A stretch of DNA of 61,893 nucleotides from an uncultured Candidatus Saccharibacteria bacterium (GCA_964600695.1 CAZRKK010000006.1:1-61893), one strand, 5' to 3'; shown: positions 45,254 to 61,893, numbered from the stretch's first letter. The notes: generated by a model not told the origin, from the sequence alone. Numbers and translations are program-made.

Positions 45254-45526
45254 ATGTCTTACAAATCTAATAACTCTCCGGCTGACTTTAGTGGTTACTC
45301 CAAGAATCAAAAATCAGATCAAAAACCCCAGCAAGTAATCTTTGAAGTTAAACCAAGGTTAACTAAAAGAACAAAAATATTACTTACCATTTTAATTATT
45401 CTTGCTACAGCTCAAGGAGTCTATTATTACATTACGTACAAAAAGAACAATCCTTCTGTTCCTGCCGGTTATGAATATGTAGATAATAAAAATGGCCCTC
45501 CTACGATCGCACCAATCTCAAAATAA
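45254..45526 (+). CDS. Small single-TM protein
   Basis: 90 aa with the TM segment ILLTILIILATAQGVYYYI. Confidence 0.4.
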   Translation: MSYKSNNSPADFSGYSKNQKSDQKPQQVIFEVKPRLTKRTKILLTILIILATAQGVYYYITYKKNNPSVPAGYEYVDNKNGPPTIAPISK

Positions 45527-45533
45527 AATCACA

Positions 45534-46046
45534 ATGACAAAAGACCTTAAGACACAAAAAGGGTTTACTTTGATCGAACTATTAATAGTAATGGCAATTA
45601 TTGGAATTTTGTCCGGTTTTTTTGTTACTAACTTTGTCACTGCAAGAAATAAAACCACGGACGCTGTTAGAAAGAGTAATTTAGCTCAATTACAAAAAGC
45701 TCTAGATCTTTATTATAATACCAACGCTACATTCCCAACTACTGGAGGACTATGGTACGGACTTGCGGATAACGCCACTCCTGGCTTTAAAGACCTCTCG
45801 GGTGCAAATGGCTATATACCAAACCTCGCTCCTACATATTTACTAAAATTACCAGTGGATCCTAGTGGAGACACATCGGGATGGTCAGGATTCTTATACA
45901 GATCAGATGGAACTGATTACAAAATTCTTGTTCATGAAAATGGACCAAAAAGTTTTCCTGCGGCTGACGACCATTTTTATGACCCGGCCAGACCAACCAC
46001 GGCATGGAAAGTAACTAATAATGATACTGCCACAGCGGCTTGGTAA
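45534..46046 (+). CDS. Type IV pilin-like protein (prepilin-type N-terminal cleavage/methylation domain)
   Basis: MTKDLKTQKGFTLIELLIVMAIIGIL has the G/F cleavage site and Glu+5. I prefer the start at 45534 over 45492. Confidence 0.8.
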   Translation: MTKDLKTQKGFTLIELLIVMAIIGILSGFFVTNFVTARNKTTDAVRKSNLAQLQKALDLYYNTNATFPTTGGLWYGLADNATPGFKDLSGANGYIPNLAPTYLLKLPVDPSGDTSGWSGFLYRSDGTDYKILVHENGPKSFPAADDHFYDPARPTTAWKVTNNDTATAAW

Positions 46047-46347: not shown

Positions 46348-48600
46348 ATGAAGGAACTCGACAAATCTTATAACGCTTCTAAGTACGAAGCCGACATCTA
46401 CAAACTTTGGATGGATTCAGGGTTTTTTAACCCTGATAATTTACCAGACCAAAATGGTGATCCTTATACAATTATCCTACCACCGCCAAATGTGACAGGA
46501 ACGCTTCATCTTGGACACGCTTTCGAAGATACCATTCAAGATATCTTAATTCGTTTTCGCCGCATGCAAGGACGAAAAACTTTATGGTTACCAGGAACAG
46601 ACCACGCTGCAATTGCCACTCAGACAAAAGTCGAAACCATTTTGCAAAAAGAAGAAGGCAAGCGAAAAACAGATTTAGGACGAGAAGCTTTCTTAAGCAA
46701 AGTTAACGACTTTGCCAAAACTAGCCATGATACAATTGTTGACCAACTCAAACGAATTGGAGCATCTGTTGATTGGAGCCGTGAAGCTTATACTTTAGAC
46801 GAAGCGCGAGAATTAGCAGTGCGCACAGCTTTCAAAGCTATGTACGATGATGGTTTAATTTATCGTGATTATAAAGTTATTAACTGGGACCCGAAAGGAC
46901 AAACAGTAATTTCTGATGACGAAATTGTATATACAGAAAGAGATAGTGTACTCTACACATTTAAATACAGTAAGGACTTCCCTATTTCTATCTCTACAAC
47001 TCGTCCAGAAACTAAAGTTGGTGATACTGCCGTAGCTGTTCACCCAGATGACAGTCGTTACCAGCAATTCATTGGTAAAGAATACGATTTAGAATTTGCC
47101 GGTGTTCCTATTCATATCAAAATAATTGCTGATGATTCTGTAGAAAAAGATTTTGGTACCGGAGCGCTTGGAGTTACTCCTGCCCATAGCCATATAGACA
47201 GCGAAATCGCTCAACGCCACAACTTAGAAACAAAGCCAGTAATTAATGAGTATGCGAAAATTGCTCTACCCGGAGTTAACAAAGCAGGGCTAGAACTAGA
47301 TGGTAAAAAAACCAGTGAAGCGCGCGAAATTATTGTTGAATGGTTGAAAGCCAGTAACCTACTAGAGAGCGAACAACCAATTAAGCAAAATGTCGCTACT
47401 GCAGAACGCTCTGGTGGGGTTATAGAACCCCTGCCAAAAATTCAATGGTTTATGGCTGTAAATAAGCCATTTATAATGAAGCACTCAGAAATTGATGGGA
47501 TAACCTCAGGGCAAGAAGTGACCCTAAAACAACTAATGCGCACAGCACTAGAAAGCAAACAGATTGGGATTTCCCCTGATCACTTCTCTAAAACTTATTA
47601 CCACTGGATAGATAACTTACGCGACTGGTGCATCTCTAGACAGATCTGGTTTGGACATCGAATTCCTGTTTGGTACAGAACCAATCCAAGCTCTGGTGAT
47701 ACAGATGAATACTGTGGTATCCAACCTCCAACCCAGACAGATGACAGCGGTGAATGGGTACAAGATGAAGACACTCTCGATACATGGTTTTCGTCTGGGT
47801 TATGGACCTTCTCTACTCTAGGCTGGCCTAATCAAACAGAAGATCTAAAAACTTTCCATCCGACATCGGTAATTGCACCTGGGTATGAAATTTTATTTTT
47901 CTGGGTAGCACGAATGATTCTCATGAGTGGTTATCACTTGGGACAAATTCCTTTTGAGCAAATTTATTTGCATGGGATTGTTCGAGACAAAAACGGGAAG
48001 AAATTCAGTAAGTCAGCAAATAATGGAATTGATCCAATTGAAATGTGTGATAAATACGGAACAGACGCCTTGCGTTTTGCGTTAGTATTTAACGCTGCTG
48101 CTGGTAATGATACTTTGTTTGATGAACAAAAAGTAAAAGGCATGAAGCATTTTGGTAACAAGCTTTGGAATATCACCAGATACATCTTAATGAACATTGG
48201 AGACTCAAATTCAGCCACAGCTACTGGACCAGCACCACAACCAACTACCCCAGCAGACAAACTAATATTAGAACAACTACAAAGTACAACCTCTGCAATA
48301 ACCAAACACTTGGACGAGTTCAGAATTCACGAGGCAGCACAAACACTGTATGATTTTATCTGGAAAGATTTTGCAGATGTGTATATTGAAGCAAGTAAAC
48401 CTCAACTGGGCCTAAATGATGACCAGACAACATCAGAGCAAAAACAAAACACTCAAAACATCCTTGTTTATGTTCTAAAAAATTCTCTGATTCTTACCCA
48501 TCCATTTATGCCATTTTTAACAGAAGTACTATGGCAAGAATTATTAGAAGCAAAGTTAGTAGAACAAAAACATTTGTTGATTCAAAAGTGGCCACAATAA
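46348..48600 (+). CDS. valS: Valine--tRNA ligase (short form, 750 aa, no C-terminal coiled coil)
   Basis: The HIGH region is PPPNVTGTLHLGHA. WLPGTDHAAIATQ and TTRPETKVGDTAVAVHPDD are present, and the KMSKS motif appears as KFSKS. Confidence 0.9.
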   Translation: MKELDKSYNASKYEADIYKLWMDSGFFNPDNLPDQNGDPYTIILPPPNVTGTLHLGHAFEDTIQDILIRFRRMQGRKTLWLPGTDHAAIATQTKVETILQKEEGKRKTDLGREAFLSKVNDFAKTSHDTIVDQLKRIGASVDWSREAYTLDEARELAVRTAFKAMYDDGLIYRDYKVINWDPKGQTVISDDEIVYTERDSVLYTFKYSKDFPISISTTRPETKVGDTAVAVHPDDSRYQQFIGKEYDLEFAGVPIHIKIIADDSVEKDFGTGALGVTPAHSHIDSEIAQRHNLETKPVINEYAKIALPGVNKAGLELDGKKTSEAREIIVEWLKASNLLESEQPIKQNVATAERSGGVIEPLPKIQWFMAVNKPFIMKHSEIDGITSGQEVTLKQLMRTALESKQIGISPDHFSKTYYHWIDNLRDWCISRQIWFGHRIPVWYRTNPSSGDTDEYCGIQPPTQTDDSGEWVQDEDTLDTWFSSGLWTFSTLGWPNQTEDLKTFHPTSVIAPGYEILFFWVARMILMSGYHLGQIPFEQIYLHGIVRDKNGKKFSKSANNGIDPIEMCDKYGTDALRFALVFNAAAGNDTLFDEQKVKGMKHFGNKLWNITRYILMNIGDSNSATATGPAPQPTTPADKLILEQLQSTTSAITKHLDEFRIHEAAQTLYDFIWKDFADVYIEASKPQLGLNDDQTTSEQKQNTQNILVYVLKNSLILTHPFMPFLTEVLWQELLEAKLVEQKHLLIQKWPQ

Positions 48601-48620: not shown

Positions 48621-48643
48621 AACCCGCGTTACGCGGGTTTTTT
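48621..48643. terminator. Bidirectional intrinsic terminator (valS and the convergent surface operon)
   Basis: The hairpin is CCCGCG-TTA-CGCGGG, flanked by A4 upstream and T6 downstream. Confidence 0.75.
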
Positions 48644-48695
48644 GATGGAGTCTAATTTGTAGTCTAATTTAGAGTCTACTTAATGAAACCGGGCA

Positions 48696-50132
48696 CTAGA
48701 AAGTGAATATATAGCCCAATAACTGGTTTTTAGTGTCGTAAACCGGCTTTATCACCATATCCGTTCGAATTGTCTGATCAGCTTTATTCAACAGATTCCA
48801 ACGAGCCTCCTCTTTTCCGTCAATCAAACAATTAGTAATAACTGCATCAAAATCATTAGTGACATTTATCCCTGTTCTATTGTGAGTAGATTCCACCTTT
48901 TGTTTGAGTTCAGTCTTTAAAACAAGATTTAGAAAATCCATCTTATTAATTACGTCCAATTCTTTATAACCAAGAATTTGCTCAGCCTTTTTGTTAAAAA
49001 CAGTAATACGACCGAACTCATTAGTCATAATGATCGCTTCAGTAGAATCGTCCACAATCGCATCTTCGTAAATAAGCTTTTTTGCATAAGACAAACTCTG
49101 TTGATTTTTTGCAAAATACATGAGCAGTAACTTTCGGACAAAAAGAATTAAAAGAATTGATAATAAAATATTAACAGCAGCAACCAAATTAGGAGCAAAG
49201 CTAAAGATTTTTCCCAACTGGGCATCTGGTACAGCGGTGAATCTTAAATACCAATTAGTGTTTGGAAAAATAATCGTTGACTTACTAGAGTAATTAGGAG
49301 AATAGCCTGCTGTTAAAATTTCGCTATCACCAGAATTATACAAAAGGCTACTTTCTGAAAAGCTTCCCTCGCCTGAATTATCAAAGATTTGAAAATCTAA
49401 TGCAGGTGCAGCATTCAAAGTTAAGTCATTCAATAAAGTGTCCATTTTTACGGAAAATGAAACAAAACCTTTGATGTTTTCTCTTCTAGCCTCAACAGTA
49501 CTAATATCAGAATTCCTTTTATAAACTGGATACACCATCACCAAACTAACCGGTGGTGTTTTTTCTTCCTTATCAACAACTAAAACCAATTTATCAGTAA
49601 TGGCGATACTATTATTGTCTCGGGCATATTCTAGCGCAGCCCGCCTTTTAGGCTCTGAGAACATATTAAAGCCAACAGCTTTAAGAGTGGTTTCGGTGGC
49701 AGGAGCTGGGTAATGTATAACCGCTATAGATGAAGTGTCTGGGGTAGGAAAAATTTTAGTATTGGGTAATTTTCTTTTGGCCAATTCCTCATTATAACTA
49801 TATATTTCCTCCGGTTTGACTACCTTTAAAAATGCAAATGTCTGCACTGCTGGAAAATTTCTTTTTGGTTCTAAATGCTCTATATAAGTTACCCAATCTT
49901 CGTTAGTCACGGTTTCACTAGAAGCAAATAAAGCTGCTGCGCCGTATAAAGCCTTAGAATTCGAGCTAATCTTTCTTTCAATAGAGGCTTTGATATCTAA
50001 AGTTGCAAGCTCTAATCTACTACTGGCAACACTTTTAGAATACCTTTTGACCATCTGGTACCCTAAAATATTGAGTATTACTAAAAATACAACCAGCAAA
50101 AATAGAATCTTATTATGTAAAGTCTTATTCAT
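48696..50132 (-). CDS. Membrane sensor: TM, CHASE-like extracytoplasmic domain, TM, PAS; no output domain
   Basis: 478 aa. It has an N-terminal TM segment, a ~290-aa external domain with a CHASE-like block (VTNEDWVTYIEHLEPKRNFPAVQTFAFLKVVKPEE) and a second TM segment (LVAAVNILLSILLILFV). A C-terminal PAS-like region follows (STEAIIMTNEFGRITVFNKKAEQILGYK), and then the protein ends. Confidence 0.5.
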   Translation of the reverse strand: MNKTLHNKILFLLVVFLVILNILGYQMVKRYSKSVASSRLELATLDIKASIERKISSNSKALYGAAALFASSETVTNEDWVTYIEHLEPKRNFPAVQTFAFLKVVKPEEIYSYNEELAKRKLPNTKIFPTPDTSSIAVIHYPAPATETTLKAVGFNMFSEPKRRAALEYARDNNSIAITDKLVLVVDKEEKTPPVSLVMVYPVYKRNSDISTVEARRENIKGFVSFSVKMDTLLNDLTLNAAPALDFQIFDNSGEGSFSESSLLYNSGDSEILTAGYSPNYSSKSTIIFPNTNWYLRFTAVPDAQLGKIFSFAPNLVAAVNILLSILLILFVRKLLLMYFAKNQQSLSYAKKLIYEDAIVDDSTEAIIMTNEFGRITVFNKKAEQILGYKELDVINKMDFLNLVLKTELKQKVESTHNRTGINVTNDFDAVITNCLIDGKEEARWNLLNKADQTIRTDMVIKPVYDTKNQLLGYIFTF

Positions 50133-50154
50133 AAGTTAAATAAATTATCGCTCA

Positions 50155-52269
50155 TTAGCTAGACCGAGTTGGTAGTTGTTCGAAAGTTTCGATCTGCCAC
50201 ACCTCTTTACCGACAAGCTCTTCAATATTTTTTAAGTCTTCCTTGAGTTGTTGTTCACGAACTTTTTGTTCACCGCTTAATTCCTGGTTCAGATTTGCTT
50301 GTCGCATCAGAACTAATTCTGCTTCAATATCGCGACGCAAAGAAATAAATCCGCGTTTGATGGAATCTTCTGTTTGGCGCAAATTTGCGGCAAATACTTT
50401 TCGACGGCGACGGACCAAAATAGCATGCACAATTATGTACGTGATCAATCCTACCAACATAACGAACAGACCAAGGATCAAACCAATGTACAAACTTTGA
50501 TATGTAATTCTAGAATTACCCCAATTTATGGCGATTGGCTTAACATCTATTTCTACCTGAGGACTAGGACTAGATAATTGAGCTCCCATTTTTGTATGAG
50601 CCCAGATAATATATTTTCCACCTTCTAAAAATCCACTATGACGATATGTCCAATCCCCGCGCTTGTCTGATGTGGTTGTAAAGTCAAAACTTCCACCATC
50701 TACTAAGCTTTGCAAATGCACAACAACATCTGCTAGAGGTTCTGTGGTTCTACCGGAAACATAAAATAATTCATCATCCTTAATATTGGCAGAGTAACTG
50801 GCAATTACTGGTGGTGAAATTTCTTGAGCTTTGACGGTAGGATAATTTTTTAACAATGAACTTCCAGCAAACATTAAGGTAGCTCCAAAAATAATCATTA
50901 CTAAAAATCCTGACATCATTTTGCCATACTTTGAACGATATTGTTGTAGCTCACTAAGCTGAGATTGGATTGTTTGAGGTAAGTGATTATCTACAACTCG
51001 ACCATGAGCCAACTTGTACCAACGACGAACAACATAGGCAACTACTAACAATAACAATAAGAGAATTAGGAATACTGGTAAAATAACTACCCATTTAACT
51101 TGCTGACCAAATGGCAACACTACTCCATCTTGACTTAAAAACCAAAACCAAGAATCAGTAACTTCCAATTTCTGGCTTACTTCTCGGAAGTTTCCAGCCT
51201 TATCATAGGCCCTAACGATCACAGAATAAGAACCATTTAACAATTCTGGAATCTGATAAGGGCTCTGTGCGTCAACAAACAATTGGTCATCAATAACTGC
51301 TTTTGGCTTGCCCTCTATTTTTAAAGGAAGTACTTTAAGTTCAAACCTATCCAAACCAGACAAGCTGTCAGAAGAATTAAATTGCGCAAATGGATTTTTT
51401 ACAAAAGTCCTACTACTTGGTGAGATTGTAATTTTGAACTCTGCTGGAGCTAAATTATCTATCTTTAAACTATAATGACTTACCCCGCCCCAACGGCCAT
51501 CTCTAAATGCCTTAATATGAAAATAGTTGATACCGTCTGGTACCTGCTTATAATTTGCTTTAGTGTCTTGGGTTTCTGGGGTATCGTCTGGTACATCTGT
51601 TGGGTTATCACTAATTGTATAACTATAGTTTGTGGCTGGAGGTAAACCTATGTCCCATATCAAACTTACGTTATTGTTTTTATACCAAACTTCTTGATCT
51701 GGATGAGTGTCCGAAACAACCACAGGACCCTGTTGTGGAGGTAACTCTAATTTATAGGATGCTCCAAAAGTGTTGTCTAAAACATTAGTTCCGCGACCGT
51801 CGTTTAGCAAGATTTGAGATTCTCCAGCAAAACGCAATGCCGCTGTTCCTACTCCTTTAACACGGAAAGTTAGTTTTGTTATTAATCCACTAGAAACATT
51901 GATTCCATTTGGAATACCACCAATGATTTCTATTTTCCCTGCACTGTTATCGTACTTAGGTGGTGTTGTGTAAATGCTGATAATTGAATTCCCAGTTGAT
52001 GGAGAAACCAATTGAAGTTTATCGGCAGGAAAAGATAAGTTAACTTGAACCGCATTTATAGTTTGTCCCTTAGTATCTGTAACTACAGAGACTTCAAAAG
52101 TACTACCAACTGTATAAGTCCCAGAACTTGGAGTTATAGCAAAGTTTGCAGCTTGAGTAGTGTTGGAAATCAGAAACCAAAGAATCACAACCCCCAACAA
52201 AGCCAGAGCTGAAATTAAAATCCTCAAAAGACTATTCTCTACTATTCGATTGTAAGATATAAAGTTCAT
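50155..52269 (-). CDS. Multi-TM surface protein with N-terminal cohesin-like domain and Ig-like modules
   Basis: 704 aa. After a TM anchor, the sequence FAITPSSGTYTVGSTFEVSVVTDTKGQTINAVQVNLSFPADKLQLVS...GKIEIIGGIPNG...LTFRVKGVGTAALRF fits the cohesin beta-sandwich pattern as annotated in similar genomes. There are three further TM segments and a charged cytoplasmic tail. Confidence 0.5.
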   Translation of the reverse strand: MNFISYNRIVENSLLRILISALALLGVVILWFLISNTTQAANFAITPSSGTYTVGSTFEVSVVTDTKGQTINAVQVNLSFPADKLQLVSPSTGNSIISIYTTPPKYDNSAGKIEIIGGIPNGINVSSGLITKLTFRVKGVGTAALRFAGESQILLNDGRGTNVLDNTFGASYKLELPPQQGPVVVSDTHPDQEVWYKNNNVSLIWDIGLPPATNYSYTISDNPTDVPDDTPETQDTKANYKQVPDGINYFHIKAFRDGRWGGVSHYSLKIDNLAPAEFKITISPSSRTFVKNPFAQFNSSDSLSGLDRFELKVLPLKIEGKPKAVIDDQLFVDAQSPYQIPELLNGSYSVIVRAYDKAGNFREVSQKLEVTDSWFWFLSQDGVVLPFGQQVKWVVILPVFLILLLLLLVVAYVVRRWYKLAHGRVVDNHLPQTIQSQLSELQQYRSKYGKMMSGFLVMIIFGATLMFAGSSLLKNYPTVKAQEISPPVIASYSANIKDDELFYVSGRTTEPLADVVVHLQSLVDGGSFDFTTTSDKRGDWTYRHSGFLEGGKYIIWAHTKMGAQLSSPSPQVEIDVKPIAINWGNSRITYQSLYIGLILGLFVMLVGLITYIIVHAILVRRRRKVFAANLRQTEDSIKRGFISLRRDIEAELVLMRQANLNQELSGEQKVREQQLKEDLKNIEELVGKEVWQIETFEQLPTRSS

Positions 52270-52279
52270 AATCCTCTAT

Positions 52280-53278
52280 CTATAAATTAGTTTCTTCCAA
52301 ATTATTTTCTGTCATCCTGCGCTTATTTAAAATATAACTCACTCCAAGAATAAATAATATCCCTAATAACCATAATAAACTATTGCCATATCTGAACCAC
52401 CATGACTGAGGATATTTAGGAAAAACCTTAATAATACGTTCATTTCCTTGTCTGTCTATGGCCGTAATGTAGATATAACTATGAAGGGCTTGATCTTCTA
52501 AAACATAAGGGCTCGAAGCCACCTTCCAACGCCCCTCTTCGATACGGCCACCTAGCGATTCTTGAATTTCATATCTATCAATACCACTTTGCTTATCTGT
52601 TGTAGCGAAGTTAATAAACCATTGACCATCAAACACTCTATCGTCCCGAGTAACTTGAGGACTAAAAGTTTCTGGAGGAATGTTATCTGGTTTACTAGTG
52701 TCTATATATAACTGCTCTTTAATTTCTGGGTCTACTGGACTACTCCCAGAACCTAATACGAATTGTTTAATACTAATTTTTGCAGGTGTTCCAAACCCAT
52801 CATTTAAATACCCTTTTAAATTTGTGATAGAAATTGCATTGGCTAATTTATTTCCAGAATAAGCAGGCATTACCAAACTCATCAAAATTCCATTTTTGCC
52901 GGTGTAGCCACCTGGGATAGTGCCGCTAAAATTAATGGAGCGAGTAGTTTCATCAAACTGTGGTCGTGTAACCCAATAAGTTATTACGGAGCCACTATCA
53001 GTAACTATGGCATTACCAAGCTCTGGAGCAATAACAATTGTTCCATCGATAGCATTAAGATTAGCTCCTTCTGTATCGATTGTGATTGTAACTGTAAACG
53101 CTTTCTCTTGTGGCAAACTTAAATTTTGTGGTTGAAAACCAACAGATGCGGCATTTGCCACAGATGGCGAAACTACTACACTTCCAATGCTTAAACTAAA
53201 AACACTTAACACAACTAACAGCAAATAAATTGCGTTAAAGTTTTTCTTTATGCTTTGAAAATATTTTTCTACTATCAT
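52280..53278 (-). CDS. Surface protein with cohesin-like domain and C-terminal TM anchor
   Basis: 332 aa. VGFQPQNLSLPQEKAFTVTITIDTEGANLNAIDGTIVIAPELG...INFSGTIPGG parallels the N-terminal domain of the 704-aa neighbour. The C-terminal TM segment is LLWLLGILFILGVSYIL. Confidence 0.5.
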   Translation of the reverse strand: MIVEKYFQSIKKNFNAIYLLLVVLSVFSLSIGSVVVSPSVANAASVGFQPQNLSLPQEKAFTVTITIDTEGANLNAIDGTIVIAPELGNAIVTDSGSVITYWVTRPQFDETTRSINFSGTIPGGYTGKNGILMSLVMPAYSGNKLANAISITNLKGYLNDGFGTPAKISIKQFVLGSGSSPVDPEIKEQLYIDTSKPDNIPPETFSPQVTRDDRVFDGQWFINFATTDKQSGIDRYEIQESLGGRIEEGRWKVASSPYVLEDQALHSYIYITAIDRQGNERIIKVFPKYPQSWWFRYGNSLLWLLGILFILGVSYILNKRRMTENNLEETNL

Positions 53279-53295
53279 GTTTATTATCTTGATTA

Positions 53296-54348
53296 TTAAC
53301 CAGTCCAGAAATACATTAATATAGAGAAGTCTTTAATATCTATAACTGAATCACTATTACAATCAACACTAGGAGGAACAGGGTTCTTTCCAAACCAGAA
53401 CAACAGAATGGAAAAATCAATCAAGTTTACTCGGCGATCCTTATTATAGTCTACACAAGATACATACTGAGGGGGAGGAACTTGATCCGGTGGTAAATTT
53501 TCACTATAAAATAAAACTTGAATTGGTTTGCTTGGCAAACTAGTACGTCCATTTAGATTAGCAGTTGCACGTAACGAATGAATACCTGCCGCAAGATTTG
53601 CTCTAAGACTTATTCGATACAAACCACTGGAATCAGCTGTCGCAGAACCTAATCCATTCCCATTAGGAGCTAGCAAGGTAACAGTGCTCCCAGGTGCAGA
53701 ATAGCCAAAAACACTATAAGAATCGCCTATTTTAATTAATAATCCACTTGCAGATAAAGTTGGTGGTAAAATAATTCCAGAATAAACATAAGGCTGTGAG
53801 GTAAATGCCGAAACATTTATTACATGTGCAGCAGAAATTTGACCAGTAGGATCTTCTGAGTAAAGAGAAAATTGATAGTTGCCAAAATTTAAGTTATTAA
53901 TTGTGATTTGAAAAGTTCCATCTGGGTTGGCAATAAGAGTTGTGGAGATACTACCATCTTTTAAGAGAGTGAGCTTCGCATTAGGGAAGACTGTGCCAGA
54001 AATAACCACTGTGGCAATTGGAGCAGTGACAGTGCCTCCACTGCCAGGGTCTTCTACCGCACCAGGAACAATAGCAGTAACATCTAAAACTTCTGAGTCG
54101 CTAACAGTATCCGCAATTACTAGATAAGTTCCAAAAGTTGCACCTACTAATAACCCTACACTAATAAAAAACCAAGCTAAGAAAATAGATTTATTAGCCT
54201 TGAATATAACCCTTCGCAGACTCAACAGTGTCTTACTACTATTTTCTGTTTTTTGTTTTAAAATTCCCAGATTTTTAGTATCTTGTAAATGATTCTTATA
54301 GTTTATTATACCATATAAAATGAAAAAATCAAAAACCCCAACCATCAA
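53296..54348 (-). CDS. Membrane-anchored protein with two Ig-like modules and a C-terminal dockerin-like duplicated Ca-binding repeat
   Basis: The C-terminus has two copies of the dockerin D-x-N-x-D-x-x-(V/I)-(N/D)-x-x-D-(F/L) segment: VDYNKDRRVNLIDFSILLFWFG...VDCNSDSVIDIKDFSILMYFWTG. The start codon is uncertain. Confidence 0.55.
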   Translation of the reverse strand: MMVGVFDFFILYGIINYKNHLQDTKNLGILKQKTENSSKTLLSLRRVIFKANKSIFLAWFFISVGLLVGATFGTYLVIADTVSDSEVLDVTAIVPGAVEDPGSGGTVTAPIATVVISGTVFPNAKLTLLKDGSISTTLIANPDGTFQITINNLNFGNYQFSLYSEDPTGQISAAHVINVSAFTSQPYVYSGIILPPTLSASGLLIKIGDSYSVFGYSAPGSTVTLLAPNGNGLGSATADSSGLYRISLRANLAAGIHSLRATANLNGRTSLPSKPIQVLFYSENLPPDQVPPPQYVSCVDYNKDRRVNLIDFSILLFWFGKNPVPPSVDCNSDSVIDIKDFSILMYFWTG

Positions 54349-54396
54349 GTAGGGGTTTAGAAAAATTAAACTAATTTTGAATCTTGGACAATAGGT

Positions 54397-55008
54397 CTAT
54401 TTTGGATTAAGGATTTCATCACCTGCCACACCACCAGAATTTATCCCGTCCGTATTTAAAGGAGCAATTTCGATAACTTTATTATTTGACGGGCGATACA
54501 AAATTGCTCTTTTTGCTTCTTGATAGATTAAAACTTTGTCACCAGCCTCGGAATTAATAAAGAATGGCTGATCTGATAACTTTGCAGGGTCTGTAACTGT
54601 TGCTATTGTGGGATCTTCATTTTCTGGTAAAATTACCAATTTCGCGACCTGCTCGACTATCTTCTTAGCTTCCTCCTTTGCCTTTGTATTTGGATCATTC
54701 TTGATTGCATTTAATTCCTTTTTTGTATTACGAAGCTCAAGAAATGATTTAGTACCAAAACCCACGATAGATAAACCGAATAGTGTTATGAAAACAACTA
54801 TTAGTAATTTCTTTTTACTAAAGCTTTTAATTTTTAACTTCTTAGTAATCCCATTAGAATTTTTGATTAAATTTGTATCCGCCGGAGCAAATTGAGAAAC
54901 AAATTCATCGGGATTATGTTCTAGTTTTTTTTGTATCCCTTTTTTTTGTGTTGACATTACTCTTTTATTATAACAAAGACTGGAAATTACGCCAATTTTT
55001 GTTAACAT
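54397..55008 (-). CDS. Single-TM hypothetical protein
   Basis: 203 aa with the TM segment LLIVVFITLFGLSIVGFG and a Lys-rich juxtamembrane region. An alternative start lies at 54957. Confidence 0.45.
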   Translation of the reverse strand: MLTKIGVISSLCYNKRVMSTQKKGIQKKLEHNPDEFVSQFAPADTNLIKNSNGITKKLKIKSFSKKKLLIVVFITLFGLSIVGFGTKSFLELRNTKKELNAIKNDPNTKAKEEAKKIVEQVAKLVILPENEDPTIATVTDPAKLSDQPFFINSEAGDKVLIYQEAKRAILYRPSNNKVIEIAPLNTDGINSGGVAGDEILNPK

Positions 55009-55018
55009 ATTTTAAATA

Positions 55019-58000
55019 TTATTCAAGTCCCAGGGAATCACTCCCACTCAAAGCATTATTTGGAATTGATTGATCCGATACAGGCTGGTTTTCGTCTGGA
55101 AGTGTTACATCCGATACAGGCTGGTTTTCGTCTGGAAGTGTTACATCACCACTTGTTTCCGAACTTCCTTCACCTACTGCATCTCCTAACCGTGGGCTAC
55201 TTAAGTCTACCGGTAACTCATCTACTGGTGAAGATGTTGAGATCAGCTCATCTTGTGAGGTTGACTTAGTTGGTACCTGAGAAGAAACCAATCGCGGCTT
55301 CTTAACCGCTAATGCTATCCAACTAAAAGTAAGGTCCTGTGGAGCTGGTTTATTCAATATGATACGGAATCCATTAACGCTCTTACGTGTTATGACTTGC
55401 TGAAGACCACTACCAAACAACTCTTCTATTTTAGAATCATCAAGTACGTTAATACTGTCTATAATACCTTTGTCAGTTTCCTGAGCTAGTCTTGGATCCT
55501 CTTCTTGAGTGATCATTGCTGTAACAGTTGGCTGCTCTAAGTATGGCCGTTCAAACACAATATCTACAAATCTATCACCAGTGACAATTTTAGCAAAACC
55601 ACCGCTATCTGCATTAAAGTATGGTCGCCCAATAAAGGTTACATCAGCAAGAATATCAATATTCTTACCATTTGAACCAATCGTTAACACTTCTAAGCCA
55701 TCTGCGACCAAGCTCGGGGTAATCACTTCAAAGGTTGCACTTAATCTATCAGTTAATATCTGAGAAGATACACCTGTATTCAATTTTTGAGACTTTATTG
55801 CCCTCAAGAAAGCGAGGATTTTTTCTTGCTTGGTAGGTTCGACATCTAAGAAGGTGTTGTTATCGAACAATACACCATCTTCATCTGGTAATTCTGTTAG
55901 GTCTGAACTATCTAAACTAAACTGCATTTCTTCCATTAACTGTTCAATTGGTAGGCCAGAAAAATCTCCATGCTCAACAAATACCAATACAGAACTACAC
56001 CTGACTACTGAGGTAGTATTGGTTTTTAAAGATTCATCAGAATTTTCTGATTCGATATTTATCACAGGTTCCCCAAAAGCACATATCCCTGCCTCTGATT
56101 GATCTGGGCTATTTGCCAAAGCTTTACCAATAATAGAACCTGCTCCGGTGGCACGCATGGCATATCCTGGAATAGAAGATGTGGTTAAGTAATCCCCTGC
56201 TTTGACAGGACCATTTTCATAACTAAACTTTACAGGAACACGTCCAGTCAATGCTACAGGATAACCATTTTCTGCTCGGGCACCTAAAATTATTCCTGGT
56301 CTAGTGGCCACAATACCAACTATGCCACCACTATATTTTCCACTAGAACGCAAAATATCATCCCCATCACCATCTTCGTCAATTACAACCACATCACCAT
56401 AATCCAAAGTTTCTGTTGAATAATAATACTCAGCTAAGTCGGCACCTTGTCCTAAACCAAGGACATCTTGCGTATACCCAAAGTTACCCATAGCTACAAT
56501 GGCTTGACGAATATCTTCAACAGCTGAAAGAGTATCTCCTTGTACCTGCTTTAAGCTAGTATCGTTTCTGCTTACTCTAAAGAACGCACCATTACCAATG
56601 GCTAAAGTTTCCGAATAAGAAGACATTGCTGAAATATTATCAGCCCCGGTACCGGACCAAGAACTTCCCAGGTCATCATTTGGATAACCAGCGTCTGTAT
56701 GAATTACTTGTGTTTTAATTGAACCTGCCCCAGCATTTGTATAGACTGTAACGCCGCCGCCGTCAGCACCATCACTAGTACCAACATAAACTTTTCTGGT
56801 TCTATTTAACTGGGTCGGTGAATCTACACTAATAGCCGTAACATTGTTACTGGAACCATAAAGTCTGGCTGGTGAAACCTGATAATCTGTCGTCGTATCT
56901 GGCGTCACCGTGAACGCTGGGTAAACCGTAAATGTTGTTGCAGTATTTGATATAATGTTTCTTGTTTGTCCAGCCCCTGTACCTCCAGTTAATTCGACAA
57001 CTAAACCCACAAATGAGTCAGGAACATAACTCTCTCCTGAATCACCGATTGTTGTGCTACTAAAAGTGGTGGCATCGGTTACAGTAGCATTTGGCCTAAT
57101 CATATGGGCCCTTCCATCTAAGTACAATTTATTTGCACTTTGTGCAGTTAAACCATCACCAGTAGTACCACCATTTGAACTCCATACCATATCATCAATT
57201 GATCCATCCCAGTAGTTTGTACCTGTAGCACAGTTAGCACCAGAACAAGCACCACCCACAGTCAATACTTGTGATGCATCTAGTGTGGCAGTTGCAGCCA
57301 AAGATGTGTCACAAGCGGCGGCCTGACGACCATCTATATATAAACATATGTCGGTATCTGTATTAGTATAAACTAAATGGTGCCATTGCCCATCGTTGTA
57401 AGTGGCGCTAGATGTAACGGAGTCGTCATAAGTGGTTTCATAAGTCCAAGTTGTAATACTATCTAAACCAATTTTAATGGCTCCAGTAGAAGTCATACCA
57501 GCCCAAATACAACCCACTGCCACTGCTGGAGTTGCCGGTGTATAACAGCGCTCGAATAAAGTATCTGAAGCAGCAGTCACACTATGCTTAAACCATAGCG
57601 AAACAGTGAAACTAATAGTACCGGCATTAAATATTGTATCAGCATCACAAGTACCATCGTCATTAGCATCTGAACACAAGTAAGAGTTGTTATTAAAGTT
57701 AACACTGTTACCGCGCACACCACCACCACCATAAGTAGGAGCTGTTGCCCCAGCTTGGTCCAAACGAGCATTGTTTGCACCAGTACCAATGGCACTGTTA
57801 GAGTTTGTAGATCCAACGGCTTCGTCAAACGGAAACGCTGCGCGAACAGCTCCTACCATGTATGGAGTGGCTACCGTAGTAGTAGTTAATTTTGACCACG
57901 AAGCAGCTACTAAGGTTCCACCAGAAGTATGCACTTCTGCCAAACCCTGGTTGGTACCTACAAATACAATATCACCAGAATCGGTTTGTCCAGCAGCAGC

Positions 58001-61000
58001 AGACTCACGAGCACTTGAAGAACGTTCAATCACGGCTAATGCACCTGGAGTAGTTGCCATAGTTGGTGCTGTTCCTGTTGTAATGGGACTTTTACCTATG
58101 GTTTCATCGTAAACCCTACCAGGAGTACCGTTTGCTTGAGTAGTTGAAACTGTATCTACGCCTTTCCATTCTTCAAGCTGAGCTTGAGTTTCGTTTGTAG
58201 CGTACATGCGACCACGAGAGGTCATAACCACCTGGTTGTAGTCATCATTAGTAACGTCGGAATAGTTAATAACTTTTCTAGTTCCCATATTGATTACAGA
58301 AACTCCAGAATCATTAGCTGCAGCAATTATGGTAACACCACGTAAGGGTCCACCTTGAGAGTCGATAGGTGCAACCAAAGTACCAGCTGAGCCTTCATTT
58401 GAACCCGACTGCACAGCAATCGAAACATCATTTACTATGTTATTTAGGATGGCAAAACCTGTTTCTGCATTATCAGAATAAGTAGCCGTACTATTTCTAT
58501 TACCAATATCTATATCTGCTTGAGTACGATTAGTTGTATTGTAGCGATACATTACATCTTGTTTAAAATCTATCGCATACATACCAGTACCCGCAGAACC
58601 GTTTGTTCCAACTACAACCACTCCATTCTGAGCTCCAACTCCAGAAGGATTATTATTTGTATCCGCTCCTAAAGAATATGTTCCAGCTTGAGTAAACTTC
58701 ATCCACAGAGAGTTATCTGACCCATCAAATATATACAGGGCGTCAGCAGTGGTTACCAAGATTGCTTTTCTTGGGAAAACAGAAGTTCCACAACGATCAT
58801 CGGAAGAAATAACACAAGGATCTCCTATACCATCATCTTTAGTCTCTGTTGCCCAAGACATTTGTTGAGACAACAAAGAATTACGCCATTCACCACCATC
58901 TGAATCCCGTGAAGTATCGTAAACAAAAATGTCTATAATCCCAGATAAGGTTCGTTGGATATCTGCGCCAATTAATTTTAAATCACCGTACACAGTTATA
59001 TCACCTCGGTTAGCAGCAGCACCGACTTGTAACATACTTAAAGGAGTTGCTGTACCGATTCCAACATAACCATTAGTAAATGCCGCTGCATATTCCGTAC
59101 CAGAACCACTACCTGCATCAACAAGTAAACCGTAACTGGTTAAATTAGAAAGTGACCCTGTTCCGCCAGTAAACCTCAAACCAGCAAAAGTACATGCTCC
59201 AGTAGCACACCCTGTGAGTGTAGGAGTTTCTATATTCAATGCATTGATTTGTTTTGTCCCAGCAGCTGTTGTATCGATCGTTGTTGCAACACTCAAACCA
59301 TTTACTATACCGGTTCCACCAGAATTATCATTACTAGCAGTAATATTAATTTTTGAACCATTGGTGGTGGTGGTTCCTGATGATGCAGAAGAGTTATCTG
59401 TGACTGTAATGCTATCCAAGCTCCCTGTTTCCGCAGAAGCATGAACAAATGTAGACGATGCACTTAACACACTACCAGTTGTCATACTTGATCCACCAAT
59501 AATACTAACAGCGGTTCCTGTTGTTAGAGATGTACCAGAGAATTTAGCGACCACTCCTGCAGTTGTTGAGTTAGCTGTTGCATTAAATAGACCGCCGCTA
59601 CCACTAAAATTCGCTGACCCTAGAAGCTGAACAATTCCATTTGATACCGAGCCTGTTGTTGCAGATGTAACCTTAAAGGCAGATCCGGAGGTTAATCCAG
59701 TAGCAGAAGAGGTTACGGTTAAGTTGTCTGTAGTAGTGGTTGCTCCCCAATCCAAAGTTTGTGCAGTTGTACCCATGTTAATTGCACCATTACCAGAAGG
59801 GTCTGCGATGGTATCAAAGGCAGTAGAGCCGCCAGAGCCACAACCTGCATCGGTCGTGTTACACAAAATTTTTGTAGTACCATTTTCGTTAATCTTGTAT
59901 TTATTTGCTGCTGTATCATACCAAATATCCCCTGCTGCAGCGCCAGATACACCAGAAACAGCAGTGTTAAAGAAGTCCCCTGTTGCTAATCCTGTACGAC
60001 CAGATGATGAATCGATAGTTAAGGTACCACCGGAACTCATCAAGAAGTCAGCGTAATTTGCTGCGGAACCATTCGCATCGTTGTAGGTTAATCGAAGGTT
60101 TGCACCAGTTGATGAGTTAATTTCTAAAGCCTTGTCCGGGGCTGTTGTACCAACAGCGACTCTACCCCCGTCTTGAACTACCAAACCAGTTACACCTGCA
60201 TTAGTACAATTCAAACAAACATTTAAGTAGTCCGTTGCCACATCATTCATATAGAAGTTGGCCCATCCTGATGAAACACCGGAGCTATCACGAAGGACCA
60301 AACCGTATTCGTCGTCTTCGCCTTTCAGATCAATGAATCCAGAAGTAGAAGAACCAGCAGTTGTGTCTATTACAATACGTCCACCAGATTGTACATAAAT
60401 ATCAGCAATTTCTGATGCTTCTGTTGCTCCGAGGATTCTCACTGAAGAAGTATTACTGTTTGAATCAACTGTTAGTTGAGCTGCTGGTGTTGCAGTTCCG
60501 ATACCAACATTACCACCTGTTAATATAGCGGCATAGTTTGTTGTGCCACCTGTGACTGCTGAATATATTCCATAATTTATATCTGCTGTACCTGATGCAG
60601 TAAAGTACCCACCATAATGAACAGTGGTTCCAGTAGTAGTTAAGTTACCAGATGCTTCACCGTATGCACCATAAGAATTATAAGTCAGTGAGGCGTTCCC
60701 TGCAGAGCTTGTGGTGTTTTGGCCAAACAATCCATAAGAATTAAATACTGTAGTACCACCAACTGCTGTAAGTGTTGGGGCTCCAGAAACTGAGGAGTAA
60801 GTTCCGTAACCGTTTGCATTTTTTGTGTTTGCGCCAGAAGGATCATTGACAATAGGACTAAATGTCACAGCCCCAGAGTTTGCATACACATTAAGAGTCT
60901 GTCCATCTGATGCAGTAGTTGCCATAGTGACAGAACTTGCATCTATAATTTGCTCGTTACCATAAATATTTACTACCGCAGGAGAAGCACTACCTTGAAC

Positions 61001-61893
61001 TGTAACAGTTGGTGTGAGTGTTGCTGAAATATTTTTTATACTTTGTGTGGCTCCCCAAGGAGGGAAACCAGGACTTGCTGTATTAGCAATATTGATTACA
61101 GTACTATCTTCCTGCGCATTGCTCGCTTGAGTTATATCAATAATTCGAGAGTGATCATTACCTGTAGTTCCAGCAAGAGCAAAGAGATAATCAGAAACAG
61201 GAGCTTGTTGTGAACCGATCTGACCAGTGGTATTAATTTGGAATAAATCACCAGAACCAACAGTAAAGAGAGAGTTTGGAGAGGTATCACCAATACCAAC
61301 ATTGCCTCCATTTGTTACGAGAGCGTAGTTTGCAGTAGTTCCATTTGTAGCAGATAGTTGCAATGCGACATTTGTAGAAGTAGAACCTGCGTGAGCATTT
61401 GATATTTGTGCTCCATATGAGGTGACACCACCGGTTCCATTTGTACCTTGAAGAGAAATATTTAACCCTGTCTGAGATGCACCTGCTGCTGTTCCGTTAG
61501 ATTGTAGATCTAAGAGCTTACCGGTTGAAAGCCCATTACCTGTTATACTAGCCAAAGTCCCAGTAGTAGCAGAGTTAGCAGTTAAGTTAAAGATACCAGT
61601 ACCAGTGTAGACACCAGTGTTGGTAATACCAAGATCAGCTCCTGTAGTATTTGCGGTAGCTTGTAAGATTATGTCGTTTGCTGTGGTTGGAGAAATTGTA
61701 GTAGATGATCTAGACCAGTATCCAATAGCACCAGAAGTTGGAGCAGTAGTTGTTAATGTTCCGTTTCCTGCTGATGTATATAGAGGACCATTTGAAGTTA
61801 GAGAAGAAAAACGAATAGTGCCTGAAGAAAGAATACCGGTTGCAGCTGCAATTGCACCAGAAGAGTTTACTTGGAAAAGATCTCCGTTACCTA
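55019..61893 (-). CDS. Giant fibre-like surface protein (more than 2290 aa, N-terminus off the window) with repeated GNVGIGT modules and a LamG/concanavalin-like domain
   Basis: I checked codon by codon that the frame stays open from the listed TTG at 61555 to the window edge. The motifs (T/G)GGNVGIG(T/D)xxP...L(T/F)V recur at least four times. The LamG-like block is FTVSLWFKH...YNDGQWHHLVYTN...LYIDG, at about 57250-57700. The composition is rich in Gly, Thr, Ser, Ala and Asn. Confidence 0.8.
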   Translation of the reverse strand, partial: GNGDLFQVNSSGAIAAATGILSSGTIRFSSLTSNGPLYTSAGNGTLTTTAPTSGAIGYWSRSSTTISPTTANDIILQATANTTGADLGITNTGVYTGTGIFNLTANSATTGTLASITGNGLSTGKLLDLQSNGTAAGASQTGLNISLQGTNGTGGVTSYGAQISNAHAGSTSTNVALQLSATNGTTANYALVTNGGNVGIGDTSPNSLFTVGSGDLFQINTTGQIGSQQAPVSDYLFALAGTTGNDHSRIIDITQASNAQEDSTVINIANTASPGFPPWGATQSIKNISATLTPTVTVQGSASPAVVNIYGNEQIIDASSVTMATTASDGQTLNVYANSGAVTFSPIVNDPSGANTKNANGYGTYSSVSGAPTLTAVGGTTVFNSYGLFGQNTTSSAGNASLTYNSYGAYGEASGNLTTTGTTVHYGGYFTASGTADINYGIYSAVTGGTTNYAAILTGGNVGIGTATPAAQLTVDSNSNTSSVRILGATEASEIADIYVQSGGRIVIDTTAGSSTSGFIDLKGEDDEYGLVLRDSSGVSSGWANFYMNDVATDYLNVCLNCTNAGVTGLVVQDGGRVAVGTTAPDKALEINSSTGANLRLTYNDANGSAANYADFLMSSGGTLTIDSSSGRTGLATGDFFNTAVSGVSGAAAGDIWYDTAANKYKINENGTTKILCNTTDAGCGSGGSTAFDTIADPSGNGAINMGTTAQTLDWGATTTTDNLTVTSSATGLTSGSAFKVTSATTGSVSNGIVQLLGSANFSGSGGLFNATANSTTAGVVAKFSGTSLTTGTAVSIIGGSSMTTGSVLSASSTFVHASAETGSLDSITVTDNSSASSGTTTTNGSKINITASNDNSGGTGIVNGLSVATTIDTTAAGTKQINALNIETPTLTGCATGACTFAGLRFTGGTGSLSNLTSYGLLVDAGSGSGTEYAAAFTNGYVGIGTATPLSMLQVGAAANRGDITVYGDLKLIGADIQRTLSGIIDIFVYDTSRDSDGGEWRNSLLSQQMSWATETKDDGIGDPCVISSDDRCGTSVFPRKAILVTTADALYIFDGSDNSLWMKFTQAGTYSLGADTNNNPSGVGAQNGVVVVGTNGSAGTGMYAIDFKQDVMYRYNTTNRTQADIDIGNRNSTATYSDNAETGFAILNNIVNDVSIAVQSGSNEGSAGTLVAPIDSQGGPLRGVTIIAAANDSGVSVINMGTRKVINYSDVTNDDYNQVVMTSRGRMYATNETQAQLEEWKGVDTVSTTQANGTPGRVYDETIGKSPITTGTAPTMATTPGALAVIERSSSARESAAAGQTDSGDIVFVGTNQGLAEVHTSGGTLVAASWSKLTTTTVATPYMVGAVRAAFPFDEAVGSTNSNSAIGTGANNARLDQAGATAPTYGGGGVRGNSVNFNNNSYLCSDANDDGTCDADTIFNAGTISFTVSLWFKHSVTAASDTLFERCYTPATPAVAVGCIWAGMTSTGAIKIGLDSITTWTYETTYDDSVTSSATYNDGQWHHLVYTNTDTDICLYIDGRQAAACDTSLAATATLDASQVLTVGGACSGANCATGTNYWDGSIDDMVWSSNGGTTGDGLTAQSANKLYLDGRAHMIRPNATVTDATTFSSTTIGDSGESYVPDSFVGLVVELTGGTGAGQTRNIISNTATTFTVYPAFTVTPDTTTDYQVSPARLYGSSNNVTAISVDSPTQLNRTRKVYVGTSDGADGGGVTVYTNAGAGSIKTQVIHTDAGYPNDDLGSSWSGTGADNISAMSSYSETLAIGNGAFFRVSRNDTSLKQVQGDTLSAVEDIRQAIVAMGNFGYTQDVLGLGQGADLAEYYYSTETLDYGDVVVIDEDGDGDDILRSSGKYSGGIVGIVATRPGIILGARAENGYPVALTGRVPVKFSYENGPVKAGDYLTTSSIPGYAMRATGAGSIIGKALANSPDQSEAGICAFGEPVINIESENSDESLKTNTTSVVRCSSVLVFVEHGDFSGLPIEQLMEEMQFSLDSSDLTELPDEDGVLFDNNTFLDVEPTKQEKILAFLRAIKSQKLNTGVSSQILTDRLSATFEVITPSLVADGLEVLTIGSNGKNIDILADVTFIGRPYFNADSGGFAKIVTGDRFVDIVFERPYLEQPTVTAMITQEEDPRLAQETDKGIIDSINVLDDSKIEELFGSGLQQVITRKSVNGFRIILNKPAPQDLTFSWIALAVKKPRLVSSQVPTKSTSQDELISTSSPVDELPVDLSSPRLGDAVGEGSSETSGDVTLPDENQPVSDVTLPDENQPVSDQSIPNNALSGSDSLGLE
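55074..55145. repeat. Perfect 2 x 36-nt tandem repeat inside the 3' end of the giant gene
   Basis: TCCGATACAGGCTGGTTTTCGTCTGGAAGTGTTACA occurs at 55074-55109 and again at 55110-55145. It encodes VTLPDENQPVSD twice. Confidence 0.9.

Follow-up and report, generated by a model that had tools for sequence, protein, structure and literature searches.

A stretch of DNA of 61,893 nucleotides from an uncultured Candidatus Saccharibacteria bacterium (GCA_964600695.1, CAZRKK010000006.1:1-61893), referred to here as the window, ends in a cluster of six minus-strand genes. From upstream to downstream, these encode a giant fibre-like protein, a small transmembrane protein, a dockerin protein (Doc), two cohesin proteins (C3 and C7) and a sensor with a CHASE and a PAS domain. 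The cluster is on balance best described as a conserved three-gene cohesin-dockerin module (Doc, C3 and C7) combined with a swappable fibre cassette and a clade-specific sensor, together making up a putative attachment device; this description is held with moderate confidence. The domain identities, the gene order, its conservation, the boundary of the cassette and the absence of enzymes were established directly.

In a preliminary description of the same DNA, the six genes were presented as one surface operon encoding a cellulosome-style scaffold without glycoside hydrolases. The domain assignments have stood. A dockerin and two cohesin-like modules are encoded side by side (C7 recognized by Pfam, C3 by predicted structure and paralogy, Doc at the level of its family), the sensor is a CHASE/PAS membrane protein, the giant has more than 2290 residues and a lectin-type domain, and the analysis of hydrophobic segments agrees with the products being membrane or surface proteins. 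The statement that every product has a signal or anchor sequence holds for five of the proteins; the N-terminus of the giant lies outside the window and its visible 2290 residues contain no hydrophobic segment. No glycoside hydrolase, carbohydrate esterase, polysaccharide lyase or carbohydrate-binding module (CBM) was found in the six proteins with Pfam and NCBIfam. Hence, the docking set is non-cellulosomal, though cellulosome-style.

The dockerin and cohesin proteins

The gene for Doc was placed by open reading frame (ORF) calling at 53296-54348 on the minus strand, with the true start probably downstream of 54348. The protein is composed of an N-terminal signal/anchor with one hydrophobic segment, two immunoglobulin (Ig)-like Big_6 domains (Pfam, E 2e-14), a proline-rich linker and a C-terminal dockerin module (53299-53460, minus strand). 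A dockerin was defined by two tandem calcium-binding loop-helix repeats of about 22 residues, and these are found in the 54-residue tail of Doc as two calcium-loop/helix repeats, DYNKDRRVNLID-FSIL and DCNSDSVIDIKD-FSIL. The Pfam family Dockerin_1 was matched by 34 of 35 relatives of Doc (best E 1.3e-9), and NCBI gives one relative the name dockerin type I protein. When the family profile was compared with the PDB, it aligned over the full module with at least seven solved dockerins, including 2y3n_B (E 3e-4), 5nrm_B, 2vn5_B, 4fl4_A and 1daq_A. The tail, its two cysteines included, is near-invariant across orthologues that are just 50% identical overall. One of these cysteines, which are conserved throughout the family, stands immediately before the first calcium loop and the other within the second, and the pair could form a disulfide stapling both repeats. 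A hidden Markov model (HMM) of the dockerin tail found exactly one gene per locus, that of Doc, and nothing else in the 62-kb window or in 86 related loci.

A cohesin was defined as a nine-stranded beta-sandwich matching PF00963, which was recognized in C7 with Pfam and in C3 from structure and paralogy. C7 (704 amino acids; gene at 50155-52269, minus strand) scores 28.1 bits with PF00963 against a cut-off of 24.1 over a module encoded at 51841-52122 (minus strand), and it also matches the Ig-like Big_13; its orthologues likewise match Pfam Cohesin. The protein has four hydrophobic segments, and we read its topology as a signal/anchor, an extracellular cohesin with an Ig-like domain, a transmembrane segment, a short cytoplasmic loop, a second transmembrane segment, a second extracellular Ig-like domain, a further transmembrane segment and a charged cytoplasmic tail. 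This tail is probably helical, as judged by eye.

C3 (332 amino acids; gene at 52280-53278, minus strand) consists of a signal/anchor, a cohesin module (52754-53149, minus strand), a fibronectin type III (FN3)/Ig-like module and a C-terminal transmembrane segment. It has no Pfam match. By BLASTP, both of its extracellular modules have paralogous counterparts in the N-terminal half of C7 (E 8e-9 and 2e-8), and an AlphaFold2 model built from 36 homologues reached a mean predicted local distance difference test score (pLDDT) of 89. Cohesins accounted for 20 of the 22 best Foldseek matches of this model in the PDB; the top match was 2w1n, a cohesin with an FN3 domain (E 2e-8), and cellulosomal cohesins came next (TM-scores 0.48-0.67, target-normalised). 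The profile of the C3 family matched the cohesin 5aoz weakly (E 0.011). With one cohesin each and no CBM, C3 and C7 are not scaffoldins in the sense of proteins with several cohesins and a CBM.

Conservation of the three-gene module

A species-level scan with one genome per species gave at least 599 pattern matches, of which 509 encode a Doc relative, and most of the named records belong to lineages of the Patescibacteria. The lineages named among the matches listed are Doudna-, Yanofsky-, Kaiser-, Magasanik-, Nomura-, Wolfe-, Jorgensen-, Portnoy- and Komeilibacteria and the Paceibacterota. Related proteins and contigs were nearly all derived from metagenome bins of the Patescibacteria, also called the candidate phyla radiation (CPR), and the nearest specifically named ones carry the label Candidatus Doudnabacteria. 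Automatic bin labels on relatives, such as 'uncultured Saccharibacteria' and 'Gammaproteobacteria', were not trusted.

The ORFs of 86 fetched loci were called and searched with the window proteins and the family HMMs, giving 87 sequences with the window included. The order of the trio could be read in the 67 loci whose sequence downstream of Doc spans 3.5 kb or more. In 64 of these 67, Doc is succeeded by at least two same-strand genes of the cohesin family, with a median gap of 7 nt and median protein lengths of 304 and 582 amino acids; in the remaining three, one cohesin gene was detected, after a gap of about 900 bp. From this strict order and co-occurrence it was concluded that evolution keeps Doc, then C3, then C7 together, and not the six genes. 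Adjacency to valS was seen in 13 of the 87 sequences, the window among them, and in this clade only.

The upstream cassettes

The boundary of the cassette is seen in the closest relative with upstream sequence (L001). Compared with the window, this locus is 85% identical in Doc, 85% in C3, 88% in C7, 84% in the CHASE protein and 92% in valS, and its small transmembrane protein is merely 43% identical. No giant precedes the transmembrane gene there; genes for a sugar epimerase and a methyltransferase, on the opposite strand, stand in its place. The break in conservation falls between the transmembrane gene and Doc and coincides with the hairpin and promoter-like site at 54305-54358 described below.

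Three classes of large protein, types A, B and C, were found upstream of the trio, each with its own conserved C-terminal module. Type A, seen in the window and in about 16 further loci, comprises a giant of 850-2900 amino acids followed by one to three small transmembrane proteins of the 203-residue family; these giants are alike only in their last 480 residues or so, and giants with the C-terminal modules of the window giant stand upstream of the trio in about 10-12 other loci. In L058, the complete type-A giant begins with a signal anchor, and the block of five genes (giant, transmembrane protein, Doc, C3 and C7) is flanked by PGI and BacA. Type B (50 of 87 loci) comprises at least one large protein and a small one with a common C-terminal domain, then a membrane protein of 300-350 amino acids with a weak WxLIP_PGBD (DUF916) match (E 0.0056, below the Pfam cut-off). 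The shared C-terminal domain of type B ends like '..GTYxxxLTYxxTxNY', examples being L016:6309-9790, L057:5130-9812 and L035:6207-9816.

Type C is a different giant before Doc in five loci, several of them nearer relatives of the window (L003:1-768, L005:1-8965, L008:3-5849, L009:2964-9617 and L014:1-3570); it directly precedes Doc in four of the five. Its C-terminus has a conserved Cys-Trp motif, a glycine-rich stretch and the ending GGGGGSP in four of the five (GGGGSESP in L014), and this module might be a sorting or anchoring signal. The L005 giant also matches the PATR beta-strand repeat. On the same strand and within 7 kb, 27 of 41 loci have an ORF of at least 800 amino acids upstream, and 8 of 36 have one downstream (Fisher p 2e-4). 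Judging by these neighbourhoods, the giant and the small transmembrane gene are an exchangeable cassette upstream of the trio.

The small transmembrane protein of the window (gene at 54397-55008, minus strand) has 203 amino acids, or 186 if counted from the second ATG (54957), and 186 is its length in L001. A single transmembrane segment at residues 68-86 is accompanied by a conserved extracellular domain of about 110 residues, for which no Pfam model was found. The family is located between giant and Doc in 17 loci, recruited there as the companion that type-A giants always have; an added LytR_C domain was found in 10 of 26 sampled members.

The giant fibre-like protein

The giant gene occupies 55019..61893 on the minus strand, so that its 3' 6.9 kb are visible and its 5' end lies beyond the window; the frame is open across 2290 codons to base 61891. 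Thr, Gly, Ser and Ala together make up 53% of the first 930 visible residues, in which the motif G[NY]VGIG[TD]xxP occurs three times. A LamG/concanavalin-like lectin domain follows at residues 1424-1569 (57185..57622, minus strand; Laminin_G_3 E 2e-11, Laminin_G_1 E 4e-6). When six segments of the giant were searched with Pfam at E up to 5, nothing besides LamG was found, and residues 930-1425 and 1570-1805 gave no match. A sequence search of the PDB with the first 1564 residues returned only weak matches to laminin LG domains (laminin alpha-2 LG chains).

The C-terminal part contains two further modules. The first, at residues of about 1806-1945 (56057..56476, minus strand), resembles intramolecular chaperones of the gp12 or Peptidase_G2 type (PF11962, corresponding to residues 692-854 in phi29 gp12) in BLASTP, profile and Foldseek comparisons. 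It shows the pattern GA|DLAEYY...GDVV...GIV.T.PG..LG...VAL.GRVPVKF, with a junction at residues 1817/1818 that is conserved in the module family as G-[GA]-A|DLAE[YW]Y. By BLASTP, the module matches the protein P0270 (E 3e-18) over a region overlapping the PF11962 match of the latter, and P0270 also bears the 'GNVGIGT..P' stalk motif of the giant; the window giant itself has no direct Pfam match to PF11962. With tblastn, genes of PA5oct-like jumbo phages were found (E 1e-6), most of them unannotated; of the 12 records, 2 name the product a virion structural protein or a baseplate wedge/tail pin. The S74 domain (PF13884) with its SDxxxK motif is absent from the giant according to Pfam; it was found in one distant relative only, P0261, elsewhere in that protein. 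Other proteins with the C-terminal module of the giant bear YadA-head repeats, collagen repeats, or Peptidase_S74 or Peptidase_G2 domains.

The second module, at residues of about 2094-2199 (55295..55612, minus strand), is a beta-sandwich like H-type lectins and tail-fibre tips, modelled by AlphaFold2 with pLDDT above 90. Its Foldseek matches were Helix pomatia agglutinin (E 2e-3, target-normalised TM-score 0.59), tip domains from tailspikes and pyocin fibres and, among viral models, phage proteins annotated 'H-type lectin domain'. This module is common to the giants upstream of other trios.

As far as the models and sequence comparisons go, the giant resembles a tail fibre and looks like an adhesin that the cell itself encodes, and it would most likely be a trimeric adhesin recognizing the surface of a partner cell. 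If gp12 and the S74-type fibres are taken as a guide, the block at the C-terminus may serve as a chaperone for trimerisation and may be removed by cleavage. The distal head of the fibre, itself anchored by its N-terminus, would in that case be the region with the LamG domain.

The C-terminal tail of the giant is rich in Ser, Asp and Pro, and at 55055-55130 a run of 12 codons is repeated exactly in tandem (DVTLPDENQPVS twice). The G+C content of the giant gene is 0.42-0.43 (positions 56000-60000), compared with 0.36-0.37 in the five downstream genes; this may only reflect the composition rich in Thr, Gly, Ser and Ala, and it also fits acquisition as a cassette.

The CHASE-PAS sensor

The sensor gene lies at 48696-50132 on the minus strand and encodes 478 amino acids. 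Pfam assigned a CHASE domain at residues 74-253 (E 7.5e-38) and a PAS domain (E 5e-10), and transmembrane segments at residues 9-27 and 314-332 bracket the extracytoplasmic CHASE domain. Neither a histidine kinase nor a GGDEF/EAL or cyclase output domain was found with Pfam or NCBIfam, and the protein ends with the PAS domain at residue 478. This length is kept in L001, L002, L007 and L008, and the form in L005 has 347 amino acids with CHASE and without PAS. A CHASE gene downstream of C7 was found in 7 of the 87 sequences, namely the window and 6 fetched loci, close relatives only, and by this distribution the gene is a lineage-specific addition at the 3' end of the trio. Speculatively, the sensor could couple an external ligand to the complex via its PAS domain.

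Proposed mechanism

Predicted from the evidence above are the binding of dockerin to cohesin, any physical joining of fibre and trio, and a function in attachment. Doc would be exported, presenting two Ig-like domains with a calcium-binding dockerin at the C-terminal end. C3 and C7 would display their N-terminal cohesin and FN3/Ig-like modules outside the cell and be held by their C-terminal transmembrane helices. The dockerin of Doc would then bind the membrane-distal cohesin of C3, of C7 or of both, in the way in which a cellulosomal subunit binds an anchoring scaffoldin. The result would be a tethered, non-enzymatic stalk that reads, from the membrane outward, transmembrane segment, FN3-like, cohesin, dockerin, Ig, Ig. 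Calcium-dependent binding is suggested by the strict co-occurrence of the genes, and the near-invariant dockerin together with the strict gene order points to a conserved protein-protein contact. The two dockerin repeats are near-symmetrical, both having DFSIL followed by aromatic residues, so that either binding orientation would be possible. It is more speculative that one dockerin engages both cohesins, which would explain the presence of two cohesin genes per dockerin. A possible tie between the giant and the trio is suggested solely by position: large surface proteins, with adaptors specific to their class, are found time and again immediately upstream of the trio.

A bolder version of this mechanism is offered tentatively and is, as it stands, doubtful. 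According to it, the Patescibacteria would have a modular organelle for attaching to hosts, with Doc, C3 and C7 as its conserved base in the membrane; on this base, interchangeable fibre cassettes of at least three classes would be mounted or assembled. If this is true, swaps of cassettes between near-identical strains would re-target an episymbiont to new hosts.

Several findings weigh against the description as an attachment device. The Doc of the window itself scores 17.7 bits with Dockerin_1, below the Pfam cut-off of 22.9, so that the dockerin assignment rests on family-level evidence; of the Pfam matches anticipated in the preliminary description, Laminin_G_3 was obtained, Cohesin was obtained for C7 and not for C3, and Dockerin_1 remained below its cut-off. 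The loci were picked through Doc, and the conservation figures imply nothing for genomes without it. There are two cohesin genes for one dockerin gene, a ratio that is unexplained. The family of the small transmembrane protein comprises 5792 representative clusters (50% identity) at E up to 1e-3 and, being very large, is a general envelope-protein family that is not specific to this system.

As for the giant, neither a dockerin (by the tail HMM) nor a cohesin was found in it, and its physical tie to the trio is unsupported. The scores behind its chaperone-like module are modest: the profile of the module family matches the cleaved C-terminal piece of phi29 gp12, 3gqh_A (DFAEYFES...IIGVISETAGFVLGE), weakly, at E 0.35, in an alignment that starts at residue 1 of that piece, and the top Foldseek match among viral models, a 'preneck appendage protein' (E 8e-6), comes from a model with a mean pLDDT of 62. 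The residue at the junction is Ala in the giant, where phi29 gp12 has Ser. Finally, the hairpin at 54358-54333 is modest (z -1.7 in a 63-nt context), so that the boundary between the transmembrane gene and Doc is a candidate and not a demonstrated one.

Alternative explanations

Among the alternatives, the one that survives best holds that the trio is a housekeeping envelope complex, organizing the wall or S-layer or spanning the envelope, and that the giants lie next to it through the clustering of envelope genes, with no fibre being carried. The very wide conservation and almost invariant dockerin would suit such a complex, as would the cytoplasmic segments of C7, the stable synteny with valS in the clade of the window and the loci, such as L001, without a giant immediately upstream. 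It would leave out of account the upstream enrichment of large same-strand proteins (27/41 vs 8/36) and the class-specific adaptors inserted directly between the large gene and Doc (the transmembrane family in 17 loci, the WxLIP-like protein in 50), and it is regarded as rather unlikely.

A second explanation, that of the preliminary description, takes the six genes as one regulated operon for a single apparatus, in which the giant LamG fibre sits on a cohesin scaffold under the control of the CHASE/PAS protein. It is judged unlikely. The genes are indeed close together on the same strand, with gaps of 22, 10, 17, 48 and 10 nt from sensor to giant, and the single strong terminator is at the 3' end. 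The cluster converges on valS (46348-48600, plus strand), and a GC-rich hairpin at 48621..48643, flanked by runs of A and T, lies between valS and the sensor gene, whose stop codon is 52 nt away. Folded as minus-strand RNA, it has a dG of -15.7 kcal/mol and a z of -5.7. With this strong fold and U-tracts on both strands, it is a bidirectional intrinsic terminator shared with the convergent valS, as had been proposed. Between this terminator and the stop codon of the sensor gene, at 48644-48680, GTCTA occurs three times at 12-nt spacing (gaGTCTAatttgtaGTCTAatttagaGTCTAc).

The accompanying claim that the cluster contains no internal terminator was not safe. On the 3' side of the stop of the transmembrane gene (54397), a hairpin at 54358-54333 is followed by UUUUUGAUUUUUU, with the U-rich tract reaching 54323, and a near-consensus promoter-like TTGATT-16 nt-TGgTATAAT lies at 54332-54305, between this gene and Doc. 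Together, they mark a candidate boundary of transcription units at 54305..54358 on the minus strand. A second promoter-like site, TTGGCG-17-TGtTATAAT, is found at 54995-54967, between the stop of the giant and the second ATG of the transmembrane gene. A terminator scan gave 12 internal terminator-like matches, against 10.3 +/- 3.2 expected, all in coding sequence; it overlooked both the real 3' terminator and the hairpin at 54358-54333, and hence both were examined by folding. The candidate terminator and promoter signals would divide the cluster into two transcription units.

The tight spacing holds in the coordinates and in all gaps except that of 48 nt. The TTG at 54348 that opens the 350-residue Doc ORF falls within the hairpin, and a further in-frame TTG leads to a typical signal-peptide start (MSLRRVIFKANK...) aligned with the N-termini of the orthologues, so that the gap between the transmembrane gene and Doc is probably about 100-170 nt.

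The neighbourhood survey bears on the same explanation. Giants with the same C-terminal modules before the trio in about 10-12 other loci and the upstream enrichment of large proteins are in its favour. The six genes, however, are not co-conserved: the trio alone stays together, a giant is missing beside the 84-92% identical core of L001, and the CHASE gene is limited to close relatives and encodes no output domain. This goes part of the way to what the preliminary description had itself named as a refutation. It had also implied that the giant is cargo carried by a dockerin; since the tail HMM finds no dockerin in it, the giant is not dockerin-borne cargo of the cohesins.

The giant might also be a prophage tail fibre, left in a phage or tailocin remnant with unrelated neighbours. 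Its C-terminal modules do have phage relatives, including a few with virion or baseplate annotations, yet it has no PHROG match, no other phage genes are present, housekeeping genes flank the cluster and the same arrangement recurs in many species, which makes this explanation very improbable. A true cellulosome-like system for degrading polysaccharides, for which the presence of cohesin and dockerin modules could be cited, is hardly credible, as the six proteins contain no degradative or carbohydrate-binding domain, each cohesin protein has a single cohesin and the sole dockerin-bearing protein, Doc, carries just Ig domains.

Comparison with known systems and significance

The trio described here as a docking module is most readily compared with the anchoring scaffoldins of cellulosomes from Clostridia and Ruminococcus, with which it shares a Pfam-level cohesin in C7 and a cohesin fold in C3. 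The best structural matches of C3 include cohesins solved together with dockerins (6kgf, 5m2s, 5nrm and 2vn5), Doc has a duplicated calcium-loop dockerin at the C-terminus of the partner, and the carriers of the cohesins are cell-anchored. Unlike cellulosomes, the set contains neither enzymes nor a CBM, and it has one cohesin per protein in place of a tandem array. Its cohesins are anchored by transmembrane helices, with neither SLH domains nor sortase, a protein with Ig repeats forms the cargo and the host is an ultrasmall bacterium of the Patescibacteria.

Cohesin and dockerin modules are known outside cellulosomes, examples being the Clostridium perfringens cohesin structures matched by C3. 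In that organism, cohesin modules sit on secreted glycoside hydrolases. The cohesin and FN3 domains of GH84C (2w1n) were matched over both the cohesin and the FN3-like module of C3 (E 2e-8), and this system is likewise non-cellulosomal; the cohesins of the window differ in that they are carried by enzyme-free membrane proteins in a fixed three-gene unit.

For the giant, phage-fibre-like surface trimers with diverse lectin-type tips, the mosaic adhesive trimer (MAT) fibres, have been described in Bdellovibrio, where they serve in prey recognition (PMC10769870). The giant resembles MAT fibres, phi29 gp12 and K1F endosialidase fibres in its tail-fibre-like form, its lectin-type domains and, putatively, a chaperone-type module at the C-terminus. 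It differs in lacking S74 and SDxxxK, in having a chaperone-like module of the G2/gp12 type followed by about 350 more residues, in being far longer and in its link to a cohesin-dockerin trio. By analogy, the MAT family would be the closest functional precedent for the giant.

The type-B relatives, and not the window, recall the WxL clusters of Firmicutes, which are not known to contain cohesin or dockerin genes. The likeness lies in the succession of large, small and membrane proteins, and the cassette of the window belongs to another class, with a giant and a small transmembrane protein. WxL clusters are laid out with a small WxL protein, a large WxL protein and a DUF916/WxLIP membrane protein (PMC10599100). 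A stand-alone dockerin-domain protein, SEML1_0315, was reported to be essential for the epibiotic growth of a Saccharibacterium (PMC10633639). Kinship to it was considered and rejected: the protein has 927 amino acids and is encoded between hydrolase and tRNA genes, with no cohesin neighbours (PMC10633639).

In the literature on cohesins and dockerins in CPR, Patescibacteria and epibionts, with most subscription journals outside the coverage, a fixed, membrane-anchored Doc-cohesin-cohesin operon was not found, and neither was the phylum-wide distribution of the trio nor its tie to exchangeable giant-fibre cassettes. The docking principle is already known; the architecture, the host group and the logic of the cassettes are not. 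How Patescibacteria recognize and hold their hosts is largely unknown beyond type IV pili, and a phylum-wide cohesin-dockerin module beside hypervariable giant fibre genes offers a specific candidate for the machinery of attachment that can be put to the test. The predicted binding partners are small enough to be expressed and measured in vitro, the cassette boundary predicts differences in host range at the level of strains, and cohesin-dockerin docking would gain an enzyme-free, membrane-anchored example among bacteria whose genomes are minimal.

Other searches and neighbouring genes

When all six proteins were searched against PHROGs, matches were obtained only for Doc, to two families of unknown function. 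PADLOC gave no match for any of them, and NCBIfam gave only sub-threshold matches except for the PAS domain of the sensor. Readings as a defence system or a prophage were dropped, as PHROGs and PADLOC gave no supporting gene. Beside valS, at 45492-46046, there is an ORF of 184 amino acids whose counterpart in L001 matches the prepilin-type N-terminal methylation motif (PF07963), and hence the window ORF is a pilin-like gene. Beyond it lie genes for TsaD, cytochrome b5 and ABC transporters, the same as in L001.

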